The notes beneath the pieces are model-generated. The model was not told the origin of the DNA. It did no database searches and worked only from the letters and a program-made list of their open reading frames with translations. DNA of 10,174 bases from a virus (lineage: Duplodnaviria > Heunggongvirae > Uroviricota > Caudoviricetes): the IMG/VR virus record IMGVR_UViG_2548876862_000020, one strand, 5' to 3'. The translations under genes and the position numbers were made by a program. Below, in pieces: positions 2,796 through 8,495 of the stretch. Each line of letters starts with the position of its first letter. Within the stretch, counting starts at the first letter, position 1.

Positions 2796-3677
2796 TTACA
2801 TAGATGTTTCGTTTAATTCTTCCCGACGAACGCTGTAAACGTCGGTGGCTTTTGCCAGCAGTTCGTCATCATCTGAAAGTTTTTGTGCAATGTATTTGTA
2901 AGCCTTATCCAGTTCGGAGACAGTGCTGTAATTCATCGCTGCGCTGGTAAAGGCCATCAGCATTTCTTCTGGATCACGGCTATCCGCTTTACGCGTTTGC
3001 TCATCATGCTTTTTCGCTGGTTTAGCGTTGATCAGACTGTTCATTCCCGCAGCAGTAGTCGTTTGCGGAGTAATGTCTCGCTCAACGCGCGGTGCCGTTT
3101 CCTGTAATTCGTCAGGGGTGTAAACACCGAGAAGCACATCAGGAGCGTGCAGGCGAGCCCATCGTTTCGTGCAAAGATAGGCAAGCTGCTGGCGCGGATC
3201 CTGTTCCCACAATGGAGAGTTACGCACTCCGGCTTGCGCCATACTGATGGTAAGCTCACGGGGTTCTGCTTCTCCTTTAAGAACTGCTGACACAGTTACC
3301 GTCAGATTCGGTGATTTATCTGTTTTGCCGTTAACATTCGACCAGTCACCGCTCCAGCGATAATTCAGGCGTGTCGCTAGCAGGCTGGAAGAGGATACGA
3401 CCGCGTTTACCAACTGTGCTTCGTAGCCTAACGTTCCGTTTACCACATGCGTTTTCTGCGCCACGGCGAAAGGGTTCATTCCCCACTGTGCCGCCTGCAT
3501 GGTCACCGCCAGACAATCGGAAGGTTTGCCTTCAAGATGTTTCGGTACAGTCGCTTTGCTTTGTGACATCAACTCCGCGAAACGCACCAGTTGATTCATG
3601 CCCTCGGGGCTGAAGATTGCCGCAGCAGTGCCTACAGTTGCGCCTGGTTGTGATGTGATTGCGATATCATTGCTCAT
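2796..3677 (-). CDS. recT: RecT/Bet-family single-strand annealing recombinase
   Basis: 293-aa ORF. Segments MQAAQWGMNPF and RVERDITP resemble lambda Bet / RecT. Start ATG overlaps the upstream exonuclease stop as ATGA (3677-3674). Confidence 0.85.
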   Translation of the reverse strand: MSNDIAITSQPGATVGTAAAIFSPEGMNQLVRFAELMSQSKATVPKHLEGKPSDCLAVTMQAAQWGMNPFAVAQKTHVVNGTLGYEAQLVNAVVSSSSLLATRLNYRWSGDWSNVNGKTDKSPNLTVTVSAVLKGEAEPRELTISMAQAGVRNSPLWEQDPRQQLAYLCTKRWARLHAPDVLLGVYTPDELQETAPRVERDITPQTTTAAGMNSLINAKPAKKHDEQTRKADSRDPEEMLMAFTSAAMNYSTVSELDKAYKYIAQKLSDDDELLAKATDVYSVRREELNETSM

Positions 3678-4965: not shown

Positions 4966-5042
4966 TTACCGTTGAGGTAATGATTATGCGTATCTGGTTT
5001 GATGTCAATAGATATGAGTTAAAAAAATTACCCATAAGGTAA
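4966..5042 (-). promoter_or_regulatory. pL-like promoter flanked by two operator palindromes
   Basis: Minus strand reads operator TTACCTTATGGGTAA (5042-5028), 19 bp, -35 TTGACA (5008-5003), 17-bp spacer, -10 AATCAT (4985-4980), operator TTACCTCAACGGTAA (4980-4966). Operator centres are 62 bp apart. Confidence 0.6.
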
Positions 5043-5099: not shown

Positions 5100-5708
5100 T
5101 TATTGTTTGCTTTTTTCGTTCTGGTTGATGACAAATTCAATGTAACTTTCGATCTTTGCTTTCTCGGTTTCGGGTAACAATGCGTAGCGCGAGCGGTCAT
5201 AGTTGATAGTCGCAGGGTCGTGCGGGTGAATCAGTAGTTCATATCCGTGACGCCCGAATGCGGATGCAACATTCTCCAGGGTGGAAATGGAAACGCTGAC
5301 CTCATTGTTTAACAGGCGGCTGATTGTCACCTGGGCGACGCCGGATGCGCGGTGAAGTTTTCCCTGCGTTGAAAGGTCGCGGCTTTCGCTCATCCAGCGT
5401 TCCAGGTTGTGAGCCGCCAGCTGACCAATGTCGCTTGGTCCGACAGGCTGAAAACCTTCCTGAGAAAGCGAGCGATCGATATCAAGCCAGTTACGGGGTT
5501 TATTGGCGGCAGCTTCAATTTTTCGCGCAACCTGGTCGCCGATAACCTTCTTGCCAAGAGCCCAGCGGTTTACCAGATTTGCCTGAGTTCCAAGTTTTTC
5601 TGCCATCCGCGTCTGAACACCATTGAATTCACGGTCGATCAAGTCGTTGAGATTTTGCCTGCGGACGTCCTGGATACTTTTCATTTTCTGGAAAATCGCC
5701 TCATACAT
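5100..5708 (-). CDS. Prophage immunity repressor (CI-like position) with two HTH domains and no apparent S24 peptidase domain
   Basis: 202-aa ORF divergent from the cro-like gene across the operator region. N-terminal HTH (QTRMAEKLGTQANLVNRWALGKK) and a second XRE-type HTH (SGVAQVTISRLLNNEVSVSISTLENVASAFG). No room or motif for a LexA-like Ser/Lys autocleavage domain. Confidence 0.75.
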   Translation of the reverse strand: MYEAIFQKMKSIQDVRRQNLNDLIDREFNGVQTRMAEKLGTQANLVNRWALGKKVIGDQVARKIEAAANKPRNWLDIDRSLSQEGFQPVGPSDIGQLAAHNLERWMSESRDLSTQGKLHRASGVAQVTISRLLNNEVSVSISTLENVASAFGRHGYELLIHPHDPATINYDRSRYALLPETEKAKIESYIEFVINQNEKSKQ

Positions 5709-5739: not shown

Positions 5740-5813
5740 TTACCCAACAGGTAAATGCACCCCATAGGTAACTATCCTTGATTTTTGTTACCTTATGGGT
5801 GAATATTTATTAT
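5740..5813. promoter_or_regulatory. OR-like operator/promoter region between repressor and cro-like genes
   Basis: Three palindromes: 5740-5754 ttacccaacaggtaa, 5757-5771 gcaccccataggtaa (degenerate), 5788-5802 ttaccttatgggtga. Candidate pR: -35 TTGTTA (5785-5790), 17 bp, -10 TATTAT (5808-5813). Candidate pRM on minus strand: -10 AATCAT (5724-5719), a few nt before the repressor ATG. Confidence 0.55.
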
Positions 5814-5838: not shown

Positions 5839-6069
5839 ATGAGCGATAACGGACATTTCGATTTCAAAAAGCACTGGCTTGCACTTACTCCGGATGAGCG
5901 TGAAGCCTTCGCACAGGAAGCCGGAACGACGAGTCACTATATCCAGACTCACTTAACAGGTAAGCGCAAAATGCCAGGTAAAGTATTGATGAATGGGCTT
6001 TTTAAAGCCTGTAAATCAAGACAATGGTTGCGCTCAAAAGCAGAACTGGCATACTTCTTCTACTCATGA
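5839..6069 (+). CDS. Cro-like HTH regulator (YdaS/Cro-type)
   Basis: 76-aa ORF divergent from the repressor. HTH-like segment LTPDEREAFAQEAGTTSHYIQTHLTGKRKMP. Occupies the cro position. Confidence 0.65.
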   Translation: MSDNGHFDFKKHWLALTPDEREAFAQEAGTTSHYIQTHLTGKRKMPGKVLMNGLFKACKSRQWLRSKAELAYFFYS

Positions 6070-6090: not shown

Positions 6091-6114
6091 AGACCGCCAT
6101 CCGGCGGTCTTTTC
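6091..6114 (+). terminator. Intrinsic terminator after the cro-like gene (tR1-like position)
   Basis: Stem agaccgcc (6091-6098) / ggcggtct (6103-6110), loop atcc, followed by TTTT (6111-6114). Confidence 0.6.
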
Positions 6115-6219
6115 ATATCTATTCGCACCTCAAAGGTAATAAAAAACCAAATCTGGTTGATCTTTTTTTTGTGTCAGCACAAAATAACCGTAATCCCAAT
6201 ACTAATAACAGGGCTTACC

Positions 6220-6435: not shown

Positions 6436-7251
6436 ATGAGCAGACATGCAACAGATTGGGCCTGGGAGACAGATCCAGGTAGCTCGTCATTAAAGCTCAT
6501 ACTGCTCTCGATGGCTGACAGAGCCGATGAATATAACCTCTGCTACCCCAGCATAGAACGCCTCGTTAAAGACACTTGCCTGAATAAAAAAACCGTACAG
6601 GCCGGGCTTATATCGCTCATGAAAATGGGGCTTATTTCAGATACCGGAGAGAGAAAGGGTGCGACGAAAAGAGTGCGGGTTTTCTCTCTTAATATAACCA
6701 AAAACGGGAACATTAAAGGCAACCGGGAGGGAGGTAATGAACCCAAAAACGGTAATGTTACCGAAAACGGGAATATACCCAAAAACGGGATGTTGAATAT
6801 ACCCAAAAACGGGATGTTGAATGATCCCAAAAACGGGATCCAGAACCAGTCATATAACCAGTCATTTAACCAAGAGAGGGAGAGCAGGACAAAAACCGGG
6901 GATTCTGTTCCTCATGACCCCGGCGCAAACAACGCCGTGATGAATAACTTTGTTCCTCCTGGTGGGCTAGGGCAATTAGGCAAATTTGTCATGCATGAAC
7001 AATGGCAACCATCAGATGACTTTCTTCGGAAAAGCTCATTGCAGGGGATCTACCTGGACAGTCTGCCAACGGCACAGGAACTTGCAGAGTTCAGAATTTA
7101 CTGGATGGCTGAGGGTAAGGCATACCATCAGGCACAGTGGGAGCAGAAGCTGGCAAGGCGGCTGCAGATTAGCAGACAGAAGCAATCAACATTACCTGAT
7201 AACAACGTTCCGCACTGGAACAGCCCTGAAGCGTGGGAGGATTTCTTGTGA
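6436..7251 (+). CDS. Replication initiator, O-like (winged-helix N-domain, repeat linker, C-domain)
   Basis: 271-aa ORF, ATG 6436 preceded by GGAG at 7 nt. Contains DNA iterons internally. Immediately followed by and overlapped with a lambda P-like gene. Confidence 0.8.
   Translation: MSRHATDWAWETDPGSSSLKLILLSMADRADEYNLCYPSIERLVKDTCLNKKTVQAGLISLMKMGLISDTGERKGATKRVRVFSLNITKNGNIKGNREGGNEPKNGNVTENGNIPKNGMLNIPKNGMLNDPKNGIQNQSYNQSFNQERESRTKTGDSVPHDPGANNAVMNNFVPPGGLGQLGKFVMHEQWQPSDDFLRKSSLQGIYLDSLPTAQELAEFRIYWMAEGKAYHQAQWEQKLARRLQISRQKQSTLPDNNVPHWNSPEAWEDFL
6698..6840 (+). repeat. Origin-like iterons inside the O-like gene
   Basis: Six copies of core CCAAAAACGG(G/T)A at 6698, 6743, 6762, 6778, 6802, 6826. 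Two exact 24-bp tandem units at 6775-6798 and 6799-6822. Followed by tandem CAGTCAT(A/T)TAACC at 6847-6871. Encodes the low-complexity PKNG peptide repeat. Confidence 0.75.
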
Positions 7252-8033
7252 ACAACGTTTTTACCGCGATACAAAACCGTGACGGAGAAGCCCTTTATCG
7301 CATGTCAGGTTATGAGCATCAGTACGTCAACAATGACAATGTGGTGAACATGTCAGCAGAGAGGCTTGTTGATGCCCTTTTCAAACAGCTGAAACAACTG
7401 TTTCCGGCGGCAGTGGTAACCAACCTGAAGACGCCAGAGCAGGAAGTTGCTGCAAAACAGCAGTGGATTGCTGCGTTTGCCGAAGGGGGGATCCGAACCC
7501 GTGAACAGGTTTCTGCTGGTATGCGCCACGCCCGCGCCAGTGAATCTCCGTTCTGGCCGTCGCCAGGGCAATTTATCAAGTGGTGTAAAGACAGCAAGAT
7601 GGTTCTTGGCGTCACCATTGACGATGTGATGGCGGAGTTTCACCGGTACAGCAAGGAAAAAAGTTTATATCCTGGTGGTCCCGAAAGATTCCCGTGGCGA
7701 CATCCGGTTATGTACTGGGTCGTATGTGATACCCGCCGTGCAATGTATCAGCGCCAGCTTAGCGAGATTGAGGTTGAGAAACATGCGCGCAGGCTGCTCG
7801 ATGATTGGGCGAAAAAGGTGGCTTCCGGACAGCAGATACCCGATCCGGTGATCAGCATACAGGCAAAGCCAGAACCCATGAGTACGCCTCCGGACACAGG
7901 GAGAGACGTTTACCATCCACCAGGGCGAAGTTTCGGGTGTATGCCTAACGCCGCTACCCTGGGGGGAATAACACCGGCGCAGTGGCTGATGGAGGAATAC
8001 AGGCGGGGAAAGGCGGCAGGATTTATCAAGTAA
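7248..8033 (+). CDS. Lambda P-like replication protein (DnaB helicase loader)
   Basis: Segment QQWIAAFAEGGIRTREQVSAGMRHARASESPFWPSPGQFIKWCKDS parallels lambda P as recalled from memory. Preferred start GTG 7248 has GGGAGG 8 nt upstream and overlaps the O stop as GTGA. Track start 7233 has no SD. Confidence 0.8.
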   Translation: MNNVFTAIQNRDGEALYRMSGYEHQYVNNDNVVNMSAERLVDALFKQLKQLFPAAVVTNLKTPEQEVAAKQQWIAAFAEGGIRTREQVSAGMRHARASESPFWPSPGQFIKWCKDSKMVLGVTIDDVMAEFHRYSKEKSLYPGGPERFPWRHPVMYWVVCDTRRAMYQRQLSEIEVEKHARRLLDDWAKKVASGQQIPDPVISIQAKPEPMSTPPDTGRDVYHPPGRSFGCMPNAATLGGITPAQWLMEEYRRGKAAGFIK

Positions 8034-8038
8034 TACCA

Positions 8039-8058
8039 GCGCGATAGCGCATTTTTTT
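8039..8058 (+). terminator. Weak terminator-like hairpin plus T7 run after the P-like gene
   Basis: gcgc (8039-8042), loop gata, gcgc (8047-8050), then a-TTTTTTT (8052-8058). Stem is only 4 bp, so weak. Confidence 0.35.
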
Positions 8059-8070
8059 ACGTCTTGATAA

Positions 8071-8147
8071 TTACCTGTTGGGTAATAAAATATTCTAAAA
8101 TCTATTGATTTCGTGTCTTATGTGGTTTTTAATTACCTCAGGGGTAA
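8071..8147 (+). promoter_or_regulatory. Third operator-flanked promoter (p3) upstream of the DUF1064-like gene
   Basis: Operator TTACCTGTTGGGTAA (8071-8085), 19 bp, -35 TTGATT (8105-8110), 17-bp spacer, -10 TTTAAT (8128-8133), operator TTACCTCAGGGGTAA (8133-8147). Same spacing as pL. Confidence 0.55.
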
Positions 8148-8150
8148 ATC

Positions 8151-8495
8151 ATGAGAAAACAGATACAGGCTCTTGGTCGACTCAAAACAGGCCAGATGAA
8201 CAAAACAGAATCTGCGTATTGCCAGCACCTTGAGCTGCGTAAACGTGCAGGGGAAATCGCCTGGTATCGATTCGAGGGTATCAAGCTGCGGTTAGCTGAT
8301 AACACGTTCTATACGCCAGATTTCGCTGTGATGCTCGCCACCGGAGAGATGGAACTGCACGAAGTGAAAGGTTTCTGGACCGACGACGCCAGGGTGAAAA
8401 CCAAAGTCGCCGCAGATCAATATCCGTTCCGAATCATCGGGGTAACTGTTAAGCCAAAGAAAGCAGGTGGTGGCTGGAAAATCGAAGAGTTCTGA
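8151..8495 (+). CDS. DUF1064-like phage protein (predicted PD-(D/E)XK-type nuclease fold)
   Basis: 114-aa ORF. Motif YTPDF ... GEMELHEVKG fits D-x(n)-E-x-K. Overall pattern recalled as DUF1064, common next to lambdoid replication genes. Confidence 0.6.
   Translation: MRKQIQALGRLKTGQMNKTESAYCQHLELRKRAGEIAWYRFEGIKLRLADNTFYTPDFAVMLATGEMELHEVKGFWTDDARVKTKVAADQYPFRIIGVTVKPKKAGGGWKIEEF

Follow-up and report, generated by a model that had tools for sequence, protein, structure and literature searches.

The DNA analysed here, a window of 10,174 nucleotides (IMG/VR virus record IMGVR_UViG_2548876862_000020), is the early region of a phiV10/epsilon15-like temperate podophage (Uetakevirus) carried as an Escherichia coli prophage, and not of a lambda-type phage. 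The region is 96-98% identical to phiV10, vB_EcoP_ZX5, phiv142-3, TL-2011b and other E. coli Uetakevirus podophages, with a more distant match to Salmonella phages of the epsilon15/SPN1S group. On the phiV10 map the integrase and a leftward early operon come first, followed by rep, the repressor gene on the minus strand, and a cro-like gene. Next come genes for a DnaT-domain initiator and for a protein of the lambda-P type (7233-8033), a DUF1064 gene and Eae- and Ead/Ea22-like genes. The element in question is a cassette at 8039-8150, between the P-type gene and the DUF1064 gene, in which a terminator-like hairpin is followed by two operator-like palindromes, sites A and B, that enclose a predicted promoter referred to as P_b (Table 1).

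Both sites are perfect copies of the operator motif, a TTACC-N5-GGTAA palindrome, with centres 62 bp apart as in the pL pair, which bears out what the initial annotation had seen there. With up to one mismatch allowed, as in all motif counts below, the window contains six operator-like sites against 0.15 expected, a number reached in 0 of 200 shuffles. A distance of 62 bp corresponds to ~5.9 helical turns, so that A and B would lie on the same face of the helix. The DNA between the operators is 79% A+T, compared with 51% for the whole window, and the AT-rich 19 bp after site A possibly form an UP-like or bendable element. Relative to the sigma-70 consensus, P_b matches 4/6 positions in the -35 and 5/6 in the -10, with a spacer of 17 bp and a predicted start at ~8139-8141. 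The Shine-Dalgarno sequence of the DUF1064 gene, AGGGG (8140-8144), is supplied by the spacer of site B. Upstream of site A, the hairpin has a 4-bp GC stem, and RNA folding gives -8.7 kcal/mol for the 33-nt stretch and -6.5 to -8.7 kcal/mol across five phages. The GCGC hairpin and its U7 tract have the form of an intrinsic terminator, with a stem under the five-pair rule of the scan tool, and the phiV10 record marks the same hairpin as a putative rho-independent terminator, in agreement with the weak terminator initially proposed.

The same layout, namely site, 19 bp ending in ATCTA, -35, 22 bp, site, is found at pL, which scores 10/12 in the promoter scan and is the sole candidate start for the leftward operon. 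The post-replication cassette had been described as a near-duplicate of pL "base for base". This holds for the layout but not for the sequence, since identity is 49/77 over the whole cassette and 25/51 once the half-sites and the -35 are set aside (~15 expected, P ~0.002). A modular duplication of the pL cassette, also suggested initially, is possible given a similarity above chance, and shared functional constraint explains that similarity equally well.

Conservation of the cassette was followed in 12 family genomes with a full-length Rep repressor, six phages and six prophages (from species-representative genomes), whose hosts are E. coli, Salmonella, Enterobacter, Klebsiella, Citrobacter, Superficieibacter, Erwinia and Scandinavium; 11 of them were taken into the column alignment. 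The cassette is present in phiV10, epsilon15, SPC32H (35972-36048), Enterobacter phage Tyrion and Klebsiella phage BUCT711, and in 6/6 of the prophages, which come from Superficieibacter, Erwinia dacicola, Klebsiella, two Citrobacter species and Scandinavium. Sites A and B are spaced by 61-62 bp in 12/12 genomes, and the OL pair by 62-63 bp. All 62 IMG/VR loci, defined as contigs with a Rep at least 99% identical to that of the window and enough flanking DNA, carry the pair at exactly 62 bp. Among 5426 complete RefSeq E. coli genomes, 530 contain the cassette (8020-8160), nearly always as a single chromosomal copy, and this segment is 100% identical in E. coli strain A_5 (NZ_CP195580.1). The comparison proposed with the initial annotation, a look for the same cassette after the replication gene of related prophages, thus returned it from every family genome and every IMG/VR locus.

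The genes on either side are not conserved. Upstream stands a gene for P, a DnaT-like protein or another replication protein, and downstream the DUF1064 slot is occupied by a RuvC-type resolvase gene in epsilon15, Tyrion, Superficieibacter, Erwinia dacicola and Citrobacter werkmanii. As the cassette is kept though its flanking genes differ, it can be regarded as a conserved boundary element between modules. In all genomes compared, an ATG follows 2-5 nt past site B. The gene that it opens encodes either a DUF1064 protein or a RuvC-type Holliday-junction resolvase (epsilon15 35987-36451; Tyrion 37345-37809), never both, a non-orthologous replacement which hints that the function of DUF1064 is resolvase-like. 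In phiV10 the operon behind the cassette continues through a putative regulator gene and on to the terminase genes, and no terminator-like site was seen in the scan from 8150 to the window end, which fits a single operon. The downstream genes are consequently not the optional cargo that they had been taken for, given the constant choice between two types of first gene and the reach of the phiV10 operon.

At the level of single columns, the hairpin stem, T7-AC, the four half-sites, TATTGA at the -35, a GG in the spacer and T.T.AAT at the -10 are invariant in the 11 genomes, and the hairpin loop varies (GATA, AGTA, AGCA, GGAA, GCAG, GGCA, GAAG). In 77 phiV10-type population sequences, the half-sites, the -35 (8101-8111) and 8114-8138 are fixed, and neighbouring positions are saturated with variation. 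These patterns bear on a second candidate promoter further upstream, with a -35 TTGATA (8064-8069), a 16-bp spacer holding site A, a -10 TAAAAT (8086-8091) and a start at ~8098, at which site A would repress from within the spacer, like the proximal OR site at pR, with site B as a roadblock further downstream. This candidate is the best consensus match in the region (10/12) and would give a normal 53-nt leader, and the AAAAT that follows site A in its -10 is nearly invariant across genera. However, its -35 varies even in close E. coli relatives (CTCAAT, TCGACA, CTATAT and others), 8062-8070 being among the most variable positions; other genera have no -35-like sequence there, and at pL the distal site is not followed by a comparable -10. 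Because the -35 is not conserved, the upstream candidate was rejected as the main promoter and is considered unlikely; it could work alongside P_b. P_b is favoured, its -35 and -10 being invariant and laid out as in pL.

A different account dispenses with a promoter between the sites. Rep bound after a leaky terminator would then be a roadblock or termination aid against pR read-through in lysogens, or an anchor for bridges to OR 2.3 kb away, and the downstream genes would be expressed by pR read-through after induction. This account draws on a recurring order in the window, in which a terminator is followed after ~11-12 bp by an operator: the rep terminator and the distal OL site, the terminator of the cro-like gene (a strong hairpin at 6091-6110 with a T run) and the site GCACCTCAAAGGTAA, itself followed by TAAAAAA, and the P terminator and site A. 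The homologue of GCACCTCAAAGGTAA has one mismatch in phiV10, Tyrion and BUCT711. The account without a promoter also draws on the weakness of the post-replication terminator, the non-consensus -10 and the lone sites of relatives, which follow terminators without an obvious promoter. A roadblock, however, would have no need of the TATTGA and the AT-rich -10-like block, both invariant at a fixed distance from site B in the 11 genomes and the 77 sequences. Furthermore, the layout is identical to that of pL, which must be a promoter, and one site would do, whereas two are present at exactly 62 bp. The account without a promoter is for these reasons held to be improbable.

The protein expected at these operators is Rep, which is 99% identical to the phiV10 repressor and 43% identical to the repressors of epsilon15 and SPC32H; the 43% identity to the SPC32H Rep structure 5D50 extends over the full length (E = 2.5e-42, residues 9-198). 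SPC32H Rep binds palindromic DNA as a tetramer, one tetramer being enough for repression, and is dismantled by the small, tetrameric antirepressor Ant (PMC9638917). It carries a looping-type tetramerisation domain like that of Rco, with two domain pairs ~100 Å apart, and the structural mechanism of its repression was described in 2023 as not extensively characterised (PMC9986798). With a non-peptidase, tetrameric repressor of the SPC32H type in an epsilon15/phiV10-type podophage, the lambda frame of the initial annotation is only an analogy, and the system is not of the lambda CI kind. The longest open reading frame of rep, from 5708, encodes 202 residues; the homologues and the phiV10 annotation begin with MKSI, which corresponds to an ATG at 5684 and 194 residues, so that translation probably starts there and the eight upstream codons are probably untranslated.

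In the six phages and six prophages, the OL and OR motif flanking rep is the motif of sites A and B. The epsilon15 RefSeq record (NC_004775.2) lists seven "protein_bind: repressor" features, at 12-27, 2931-2947, 19895-19911, 32479-32494, 32554-32570, 32616-32632 and 35906-35922, all of them predictions of the record and not mapped sites. The last is the homologue of site A by position and sequence (ATTACC-N5-GGTAAT), located after the replication gene and a T7 hairpin and before the RuvC gene. The record annotates neither the partner site 62 bp downstream (35969-35983) nor a promoter or OR sites, and phiV10-type records annotate the terminator and no repressor sites. Binding of the palindromes mainly by another protein, such as the cro-like protein or a host factor, or their survival as functionless relics of a duplicated pL cassette, is regarded as very unlikely indeed. 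In favour of the relic, the above-chance similarity to pL is compatible with a duplication origin. Against these readings, the motif brackets rep where operators are expected, and the epsilon15 annotators assigned the sites to the repressor. A relic would moreover not have kept the four half-sites and the 62-bp spacing invariant in the 77 sequences and across the eight host genera when the bases next to them are saturated. Control by Rep would still be compatible with a Cro-type protein that uses the same operators.

Taken together, 8039-8150 is best read, with a probability of roughly two in three, as a Rep-clamped delayed-early promoter that restarts transcription past a leaky terminator. 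Briefly, the weak intrinsic terminator would trim the pR (cro-replication) transcript, and P_b would restart rightward transcription near 8140 into the DUF1064/"nin-like" operon. In a lysogen, one Rep tetramer, through its two DNA-binding dimers, would grip sites A and B together and bend the AT-rich 47 bp between them, as at pL. The bound repressor would occlude the +1 and the -10, shut out RNA polymerase and block read-through, so that the unit would be silenced both ways. Upon SOS induction, Ant would dismantle the Rep tetramers and P_b would fire together with pL and pR; the ant gene is located outside the window. The SPC32H antirepressor is said, in work attributed to Kim and Ryu in 2013, to be under LexA control. 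The strict 62 bp at two promoters is the best indirect argument for a bridged complex. As for the repressor-gated unit that the initial annotation saw starting at the DUF1064 gene, the conserved cassette and spacing and the repressor-binding annotation of the epsilon15 homologue speak strongly for it, with promoter activity and Rep binding as predictions; that reading appears right in substance and too narrow in scope.

Several points weigh against this interpretation. The -10 TTTAAT has a T at position 2, where an A is usually essential, and the consensus scan omits P_b for that reason. A start at ~8140 leaves a leader of ~11 nt that begins at the Shine-Dalgarno sequence. Because the hairpin is a weak one of 4 bp, pR read-through may supply much of the downstream expression and P_b may be minor. 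A protein-bridged loop of 62 bp is tight and, for Rep, presumed; the intervening DNA would measure ~210 Å if straight, compared with the ~100 Å between domain pairs, so that a sharp bend would be required. No start, reporter or binding data for any family member were found in the literature searched. All full-length Rep homologues keep NLVNRW together with the same half-site, which leaves no co-variation to read; a scan seeded on the C-terminal half of Rep recovered only Reps at least 99% identical, and distant hits to the N-terminal domain alone (Paraburkholderia, Hydrogenovibrio, Thiomicrospira) showed no TTACC-N5-GGTAA sites and were uninformative. Full-text searches on phiV10, epsilon15, Uetakevirus and SPC32H, which did not cover the original epsilon15 genome and SPC32H Rep papers, returned no description of these sites. 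The vB_EcoP_ZX5 paper mentions four predicted promoters and gives no positions for them.

Table 1. Coordinates of the cassette, of related elements in the window and of corresponding sites in relatives (positions refer to the window unless a phage is named; a point marks elements listed with no strand).
Feature	Position	Strand	Description
Terminator-like hairpin GCGC-GATA-GCGC (8039-8050) with T7 (8052-8058)	8039-8058	+	closes the replication operon
Site A, promoter-distal operator, TTACCTGTTGGGTAA	8071-8085, centre 8078	.	perfect palindrome; ~-62 from the predicted start
AT-rich 19-bp segment	8086-8104	+	starts TAAAAT; between site A and the -35
-35 TTGATT of P_b, the favoured predicted promoter	8105-8110	+	same position as TTGACA of pL
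TCTTATGTGG, degenerate copy of the second palindrome CCATATATGG	8116-8125	.	in the P_b spacer
-10-like TTTAAT	8128-8133	+	spaced 17 bp from the -35; its final T also opens site B
Site B, promoter-proximal operator, TTACCTCAGGGGTAA	8133-8147, centre 8140	.	perfect palindrome; covers the predicted +1
First gene of the gated unit, DUF1064 protein	8151-8495	+	114 residues; Pfam PF06356, E = 3.6e-07
rep, repressor gene	5100-5708	-	protein with two helix-turn-helix (HTH) motifs; Pfam HTH_3; no peptidase domain
rep terminator	5079-5060		precedes the pL cassette; 8 pairs, -18.8 kcal/mol
pL cassette	4966-5042	-	sites 5028-5042 and 4966-4980; -35 TTGACA 5008-5003; -10 AATCAT
OR sites	5740-5754; 5757-5771 (2 mismatches); 5788-5802 (1 mismatch)	.	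between rep and the cro-like gene
cro-like gene	5839-6069		small protein
Degenerate operator-like site GCACCTCAAAGGTAA	6125-6139	.	11 bp past the terminator of the cro-like gene
phiV10 sites beyond the immunity region	phiV10 87-119, 3252-3266, 20497-20511, 20877-20891, 24692-24706, 26870-26884, 33112-33126		
CCATATATGG-type copies in relatives	Tyrion 26454, 34217, 35387, 37310; phiV10 20920, 24738, 33134		

The population set of 77 sequences revealed a further property of the operators. All 20 half-site bases of A and B are essentially fixed, and the spacer bases of site A at 8077-8080 reach a diversity of 0.49-0.66, with three or four alleles each. High values, again with three or four alleles per position, also occur at five bases of the 5' flank of site A (8062-8070; 0.28-0.61), at 8086, 8099 and 8100 (0.41-0.55) and at the site B spacer bases 8139 and 8142 (0.49-0.60). 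For comparison, third codon positions have a diversity of 0.04 (P) and 0.10 (DUF1064), and the next intergenic gap one of ~0.04. When changes were counted by parsimony on a neighbour-joining tree built from the flanks, counts that recombination inflates, ~24 changes per site were obtained for the site A spacer, ~21.5 for 8139 and 8142 in site B, and ~10-24 over the variable positions together. Synonymous sites gave 1.2-2.3, a large difference despite that inflation. In the uncontacted part of its spacer, site A evolves ~10-20 times faster than synonymous sites do; the 77 phages contain 32 site A spacer haplotypes, and pairs only 1-2% apart in the flanks already differ at half of the spacer positions. 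The distal OL site and its outer flank show a milder spacer variability, and the OR sites show none of this pattern.

This diversity could come from selection for variation in Rep affinity or in the promoter strength of the nuclease-led operon, or from mutagenesis at a permanently occupied site. Gene conversion among operators was considered as a source of the spacers and found unconvincing, with ~4 of the 32 site A spacers equal to that of another operator (either orientation, by hand comparison) and ~1 expected. The initial annotation was correct that site A, at 8071-8085, is the exact reverse complement of the OR site at 5740-5754. A functional meaning of this identity was rejected, the spacer TGTTG being one of the 32 haplotypes, carried by 7/77 sequences and differing in phiV10; with ~0.03 such chance identities expected per genome, it is unusual, yet not conserved. 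A broader proposal joins two parts, that the A/B pair is a "promoter clamp", in which a Rep-tetramer micro-loop is used at both pL and P_b by a phage that silences every unit directly without an antitermination cascade, and that the uncontacted operator bases are under diversifying selection or local hypermutation. Neither was found described, and the two in combination are offered tentatively, as something more apt to fail than to hold.

Operators of this type are dispersed through the genomes of the relatives, of which the window contains only 3-4 loci. phiV10 carries 14 sites against 0.64 expected, 12 of them within the intergenic 6.5% of the genome (P = 5e-13), and epsilon15 carries 15 sites, 14 of them intergenic (P = 5e-16). 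In general, the relatives have 14-15 sites at ~8 loci, nearly all intergenic and some before late genes; the "third" operator region of the initial annotation was therefore an undercount, the window itself having a degenerate site at 6125-6139. In the six phages the places are syntenic: before terS, before the head genes, in the ant/tail-fibre gap, in the gap between conversion genes and holin, upstream of int, at OL, at OR, past the cro-like terminator and at the post-replication pair. Some of the dispersed sites adjoin ant/Bro genes. This distribution suggests that the repressor silences every transcription unit directly. A role of the sites as an origin of replication was considered and is unsupported, as they carry the operator motif and also stand before late genes.

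A side observation concerns terS. In phiV10 this gene is annotated from 41, so that the operator-like sites 87-101 and 105-119 fall inside its coding sequence; in epsilon15, where terS starts at 47, both sites precede the gene, and the phiV10 start may be annotated too far upstream.

In lambda, as here, the repressor shuts divergent early promoters through palindromic operators around its own gene. However, lambda has three adjacent sites per operator, which overlap the -35 and -10 and are bound by cooperative dimers, no operator after P, and N and Q antitermination downstream, whereas in the window two sites 62 bp apart bracket the promoter, both at pL and after the replication genes, with no tripartite operator, and the repressor is a non-cleavable tetramer. 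The C1 repressor of P1, with its dispersed operators, and gp71 of L5, with its stoperators, provide precedents for one repressor acting at many scattered prophage sites to silence units and read-through. The P1 and L5 sites are asymmetric, those of L5 work in an orientation-dependent manner inside transcription units, and both repressor families are unrelated to Rep; the relatives of the window phage have operators scattered genome-wide in the form of symmetric palindromes. A geometric parallel is Rco of plasmid pLS20, a looping-type tetramer whose operators, 75 bp apart on either side of a promoter, are joined through a short DNA loop (PMC9986798). Rco operators are direct-repeat arrays that take several tetramers, whereas those of the window are single palindromes, at which looping is presumed. 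The SPC32H Rep/Ant switch (5D50, 5D4Z) combines a homologous Rep with the same cassette. In epsilon15 the slot and the motif are the same, with DnaT-like and RuvC genes as flanks in place of P and DUF1064.

Since the orthologue of site A is already marked as a repressor site in epsilon15, the cassette extends an existing annotation and overturns no current view. It shows the wiring of a common enterobacterial prophage group, present in ~10% of complete E. coli genomes, among whose members are phiV10, used for O157 typing and as a reporter phage, and epsilon15, which converts serotype. Direct gating by the repressor appears to extend to each transcription unit in this group, including the one led by a resolvase-type nuclease gene. 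For the engineering of phiV10-type reporter phages and the prediction of expression in lysogens, this means that genes located past the replication module probably have a Rep-controlled promoter of their own. The geometry of the paired operators offers a concrete DNA target for tetrameric SPC32H-type Rep and, like the fast-evolving spacers, merits experiment.

A second, shorter palindrome was noted within the promoter spacers. At an offset equal to that of the 8116-8125 element in P_b, which is invariant in the 77 population sequences, the pL spacer holds CCAGATACGC in the window (4997-4988, minus strand) and a perfect CCATATATGG in Tyrion. Related copies in other members of the family lie in holin, tail-fibre and post-cro regions, often with TTT after them. 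Tyrion has three perfect copies and one with a single mismatch, where 1.1 would be expected with one mismatch allowed; all four lie in regulatory gaps. The palindrome is probably a site for a second regulator.

No Rfam family was matched anywhere in the window. Within the P-type gene, phages with identical repressors differ strongly in the 5' third (~7240-7510; diversity 0.09-0.39 per 20-bp bin) and are nearly identical from ~7520 on (diversity <0.05), a step that indicates a mosaic recombination joint inside the gene.

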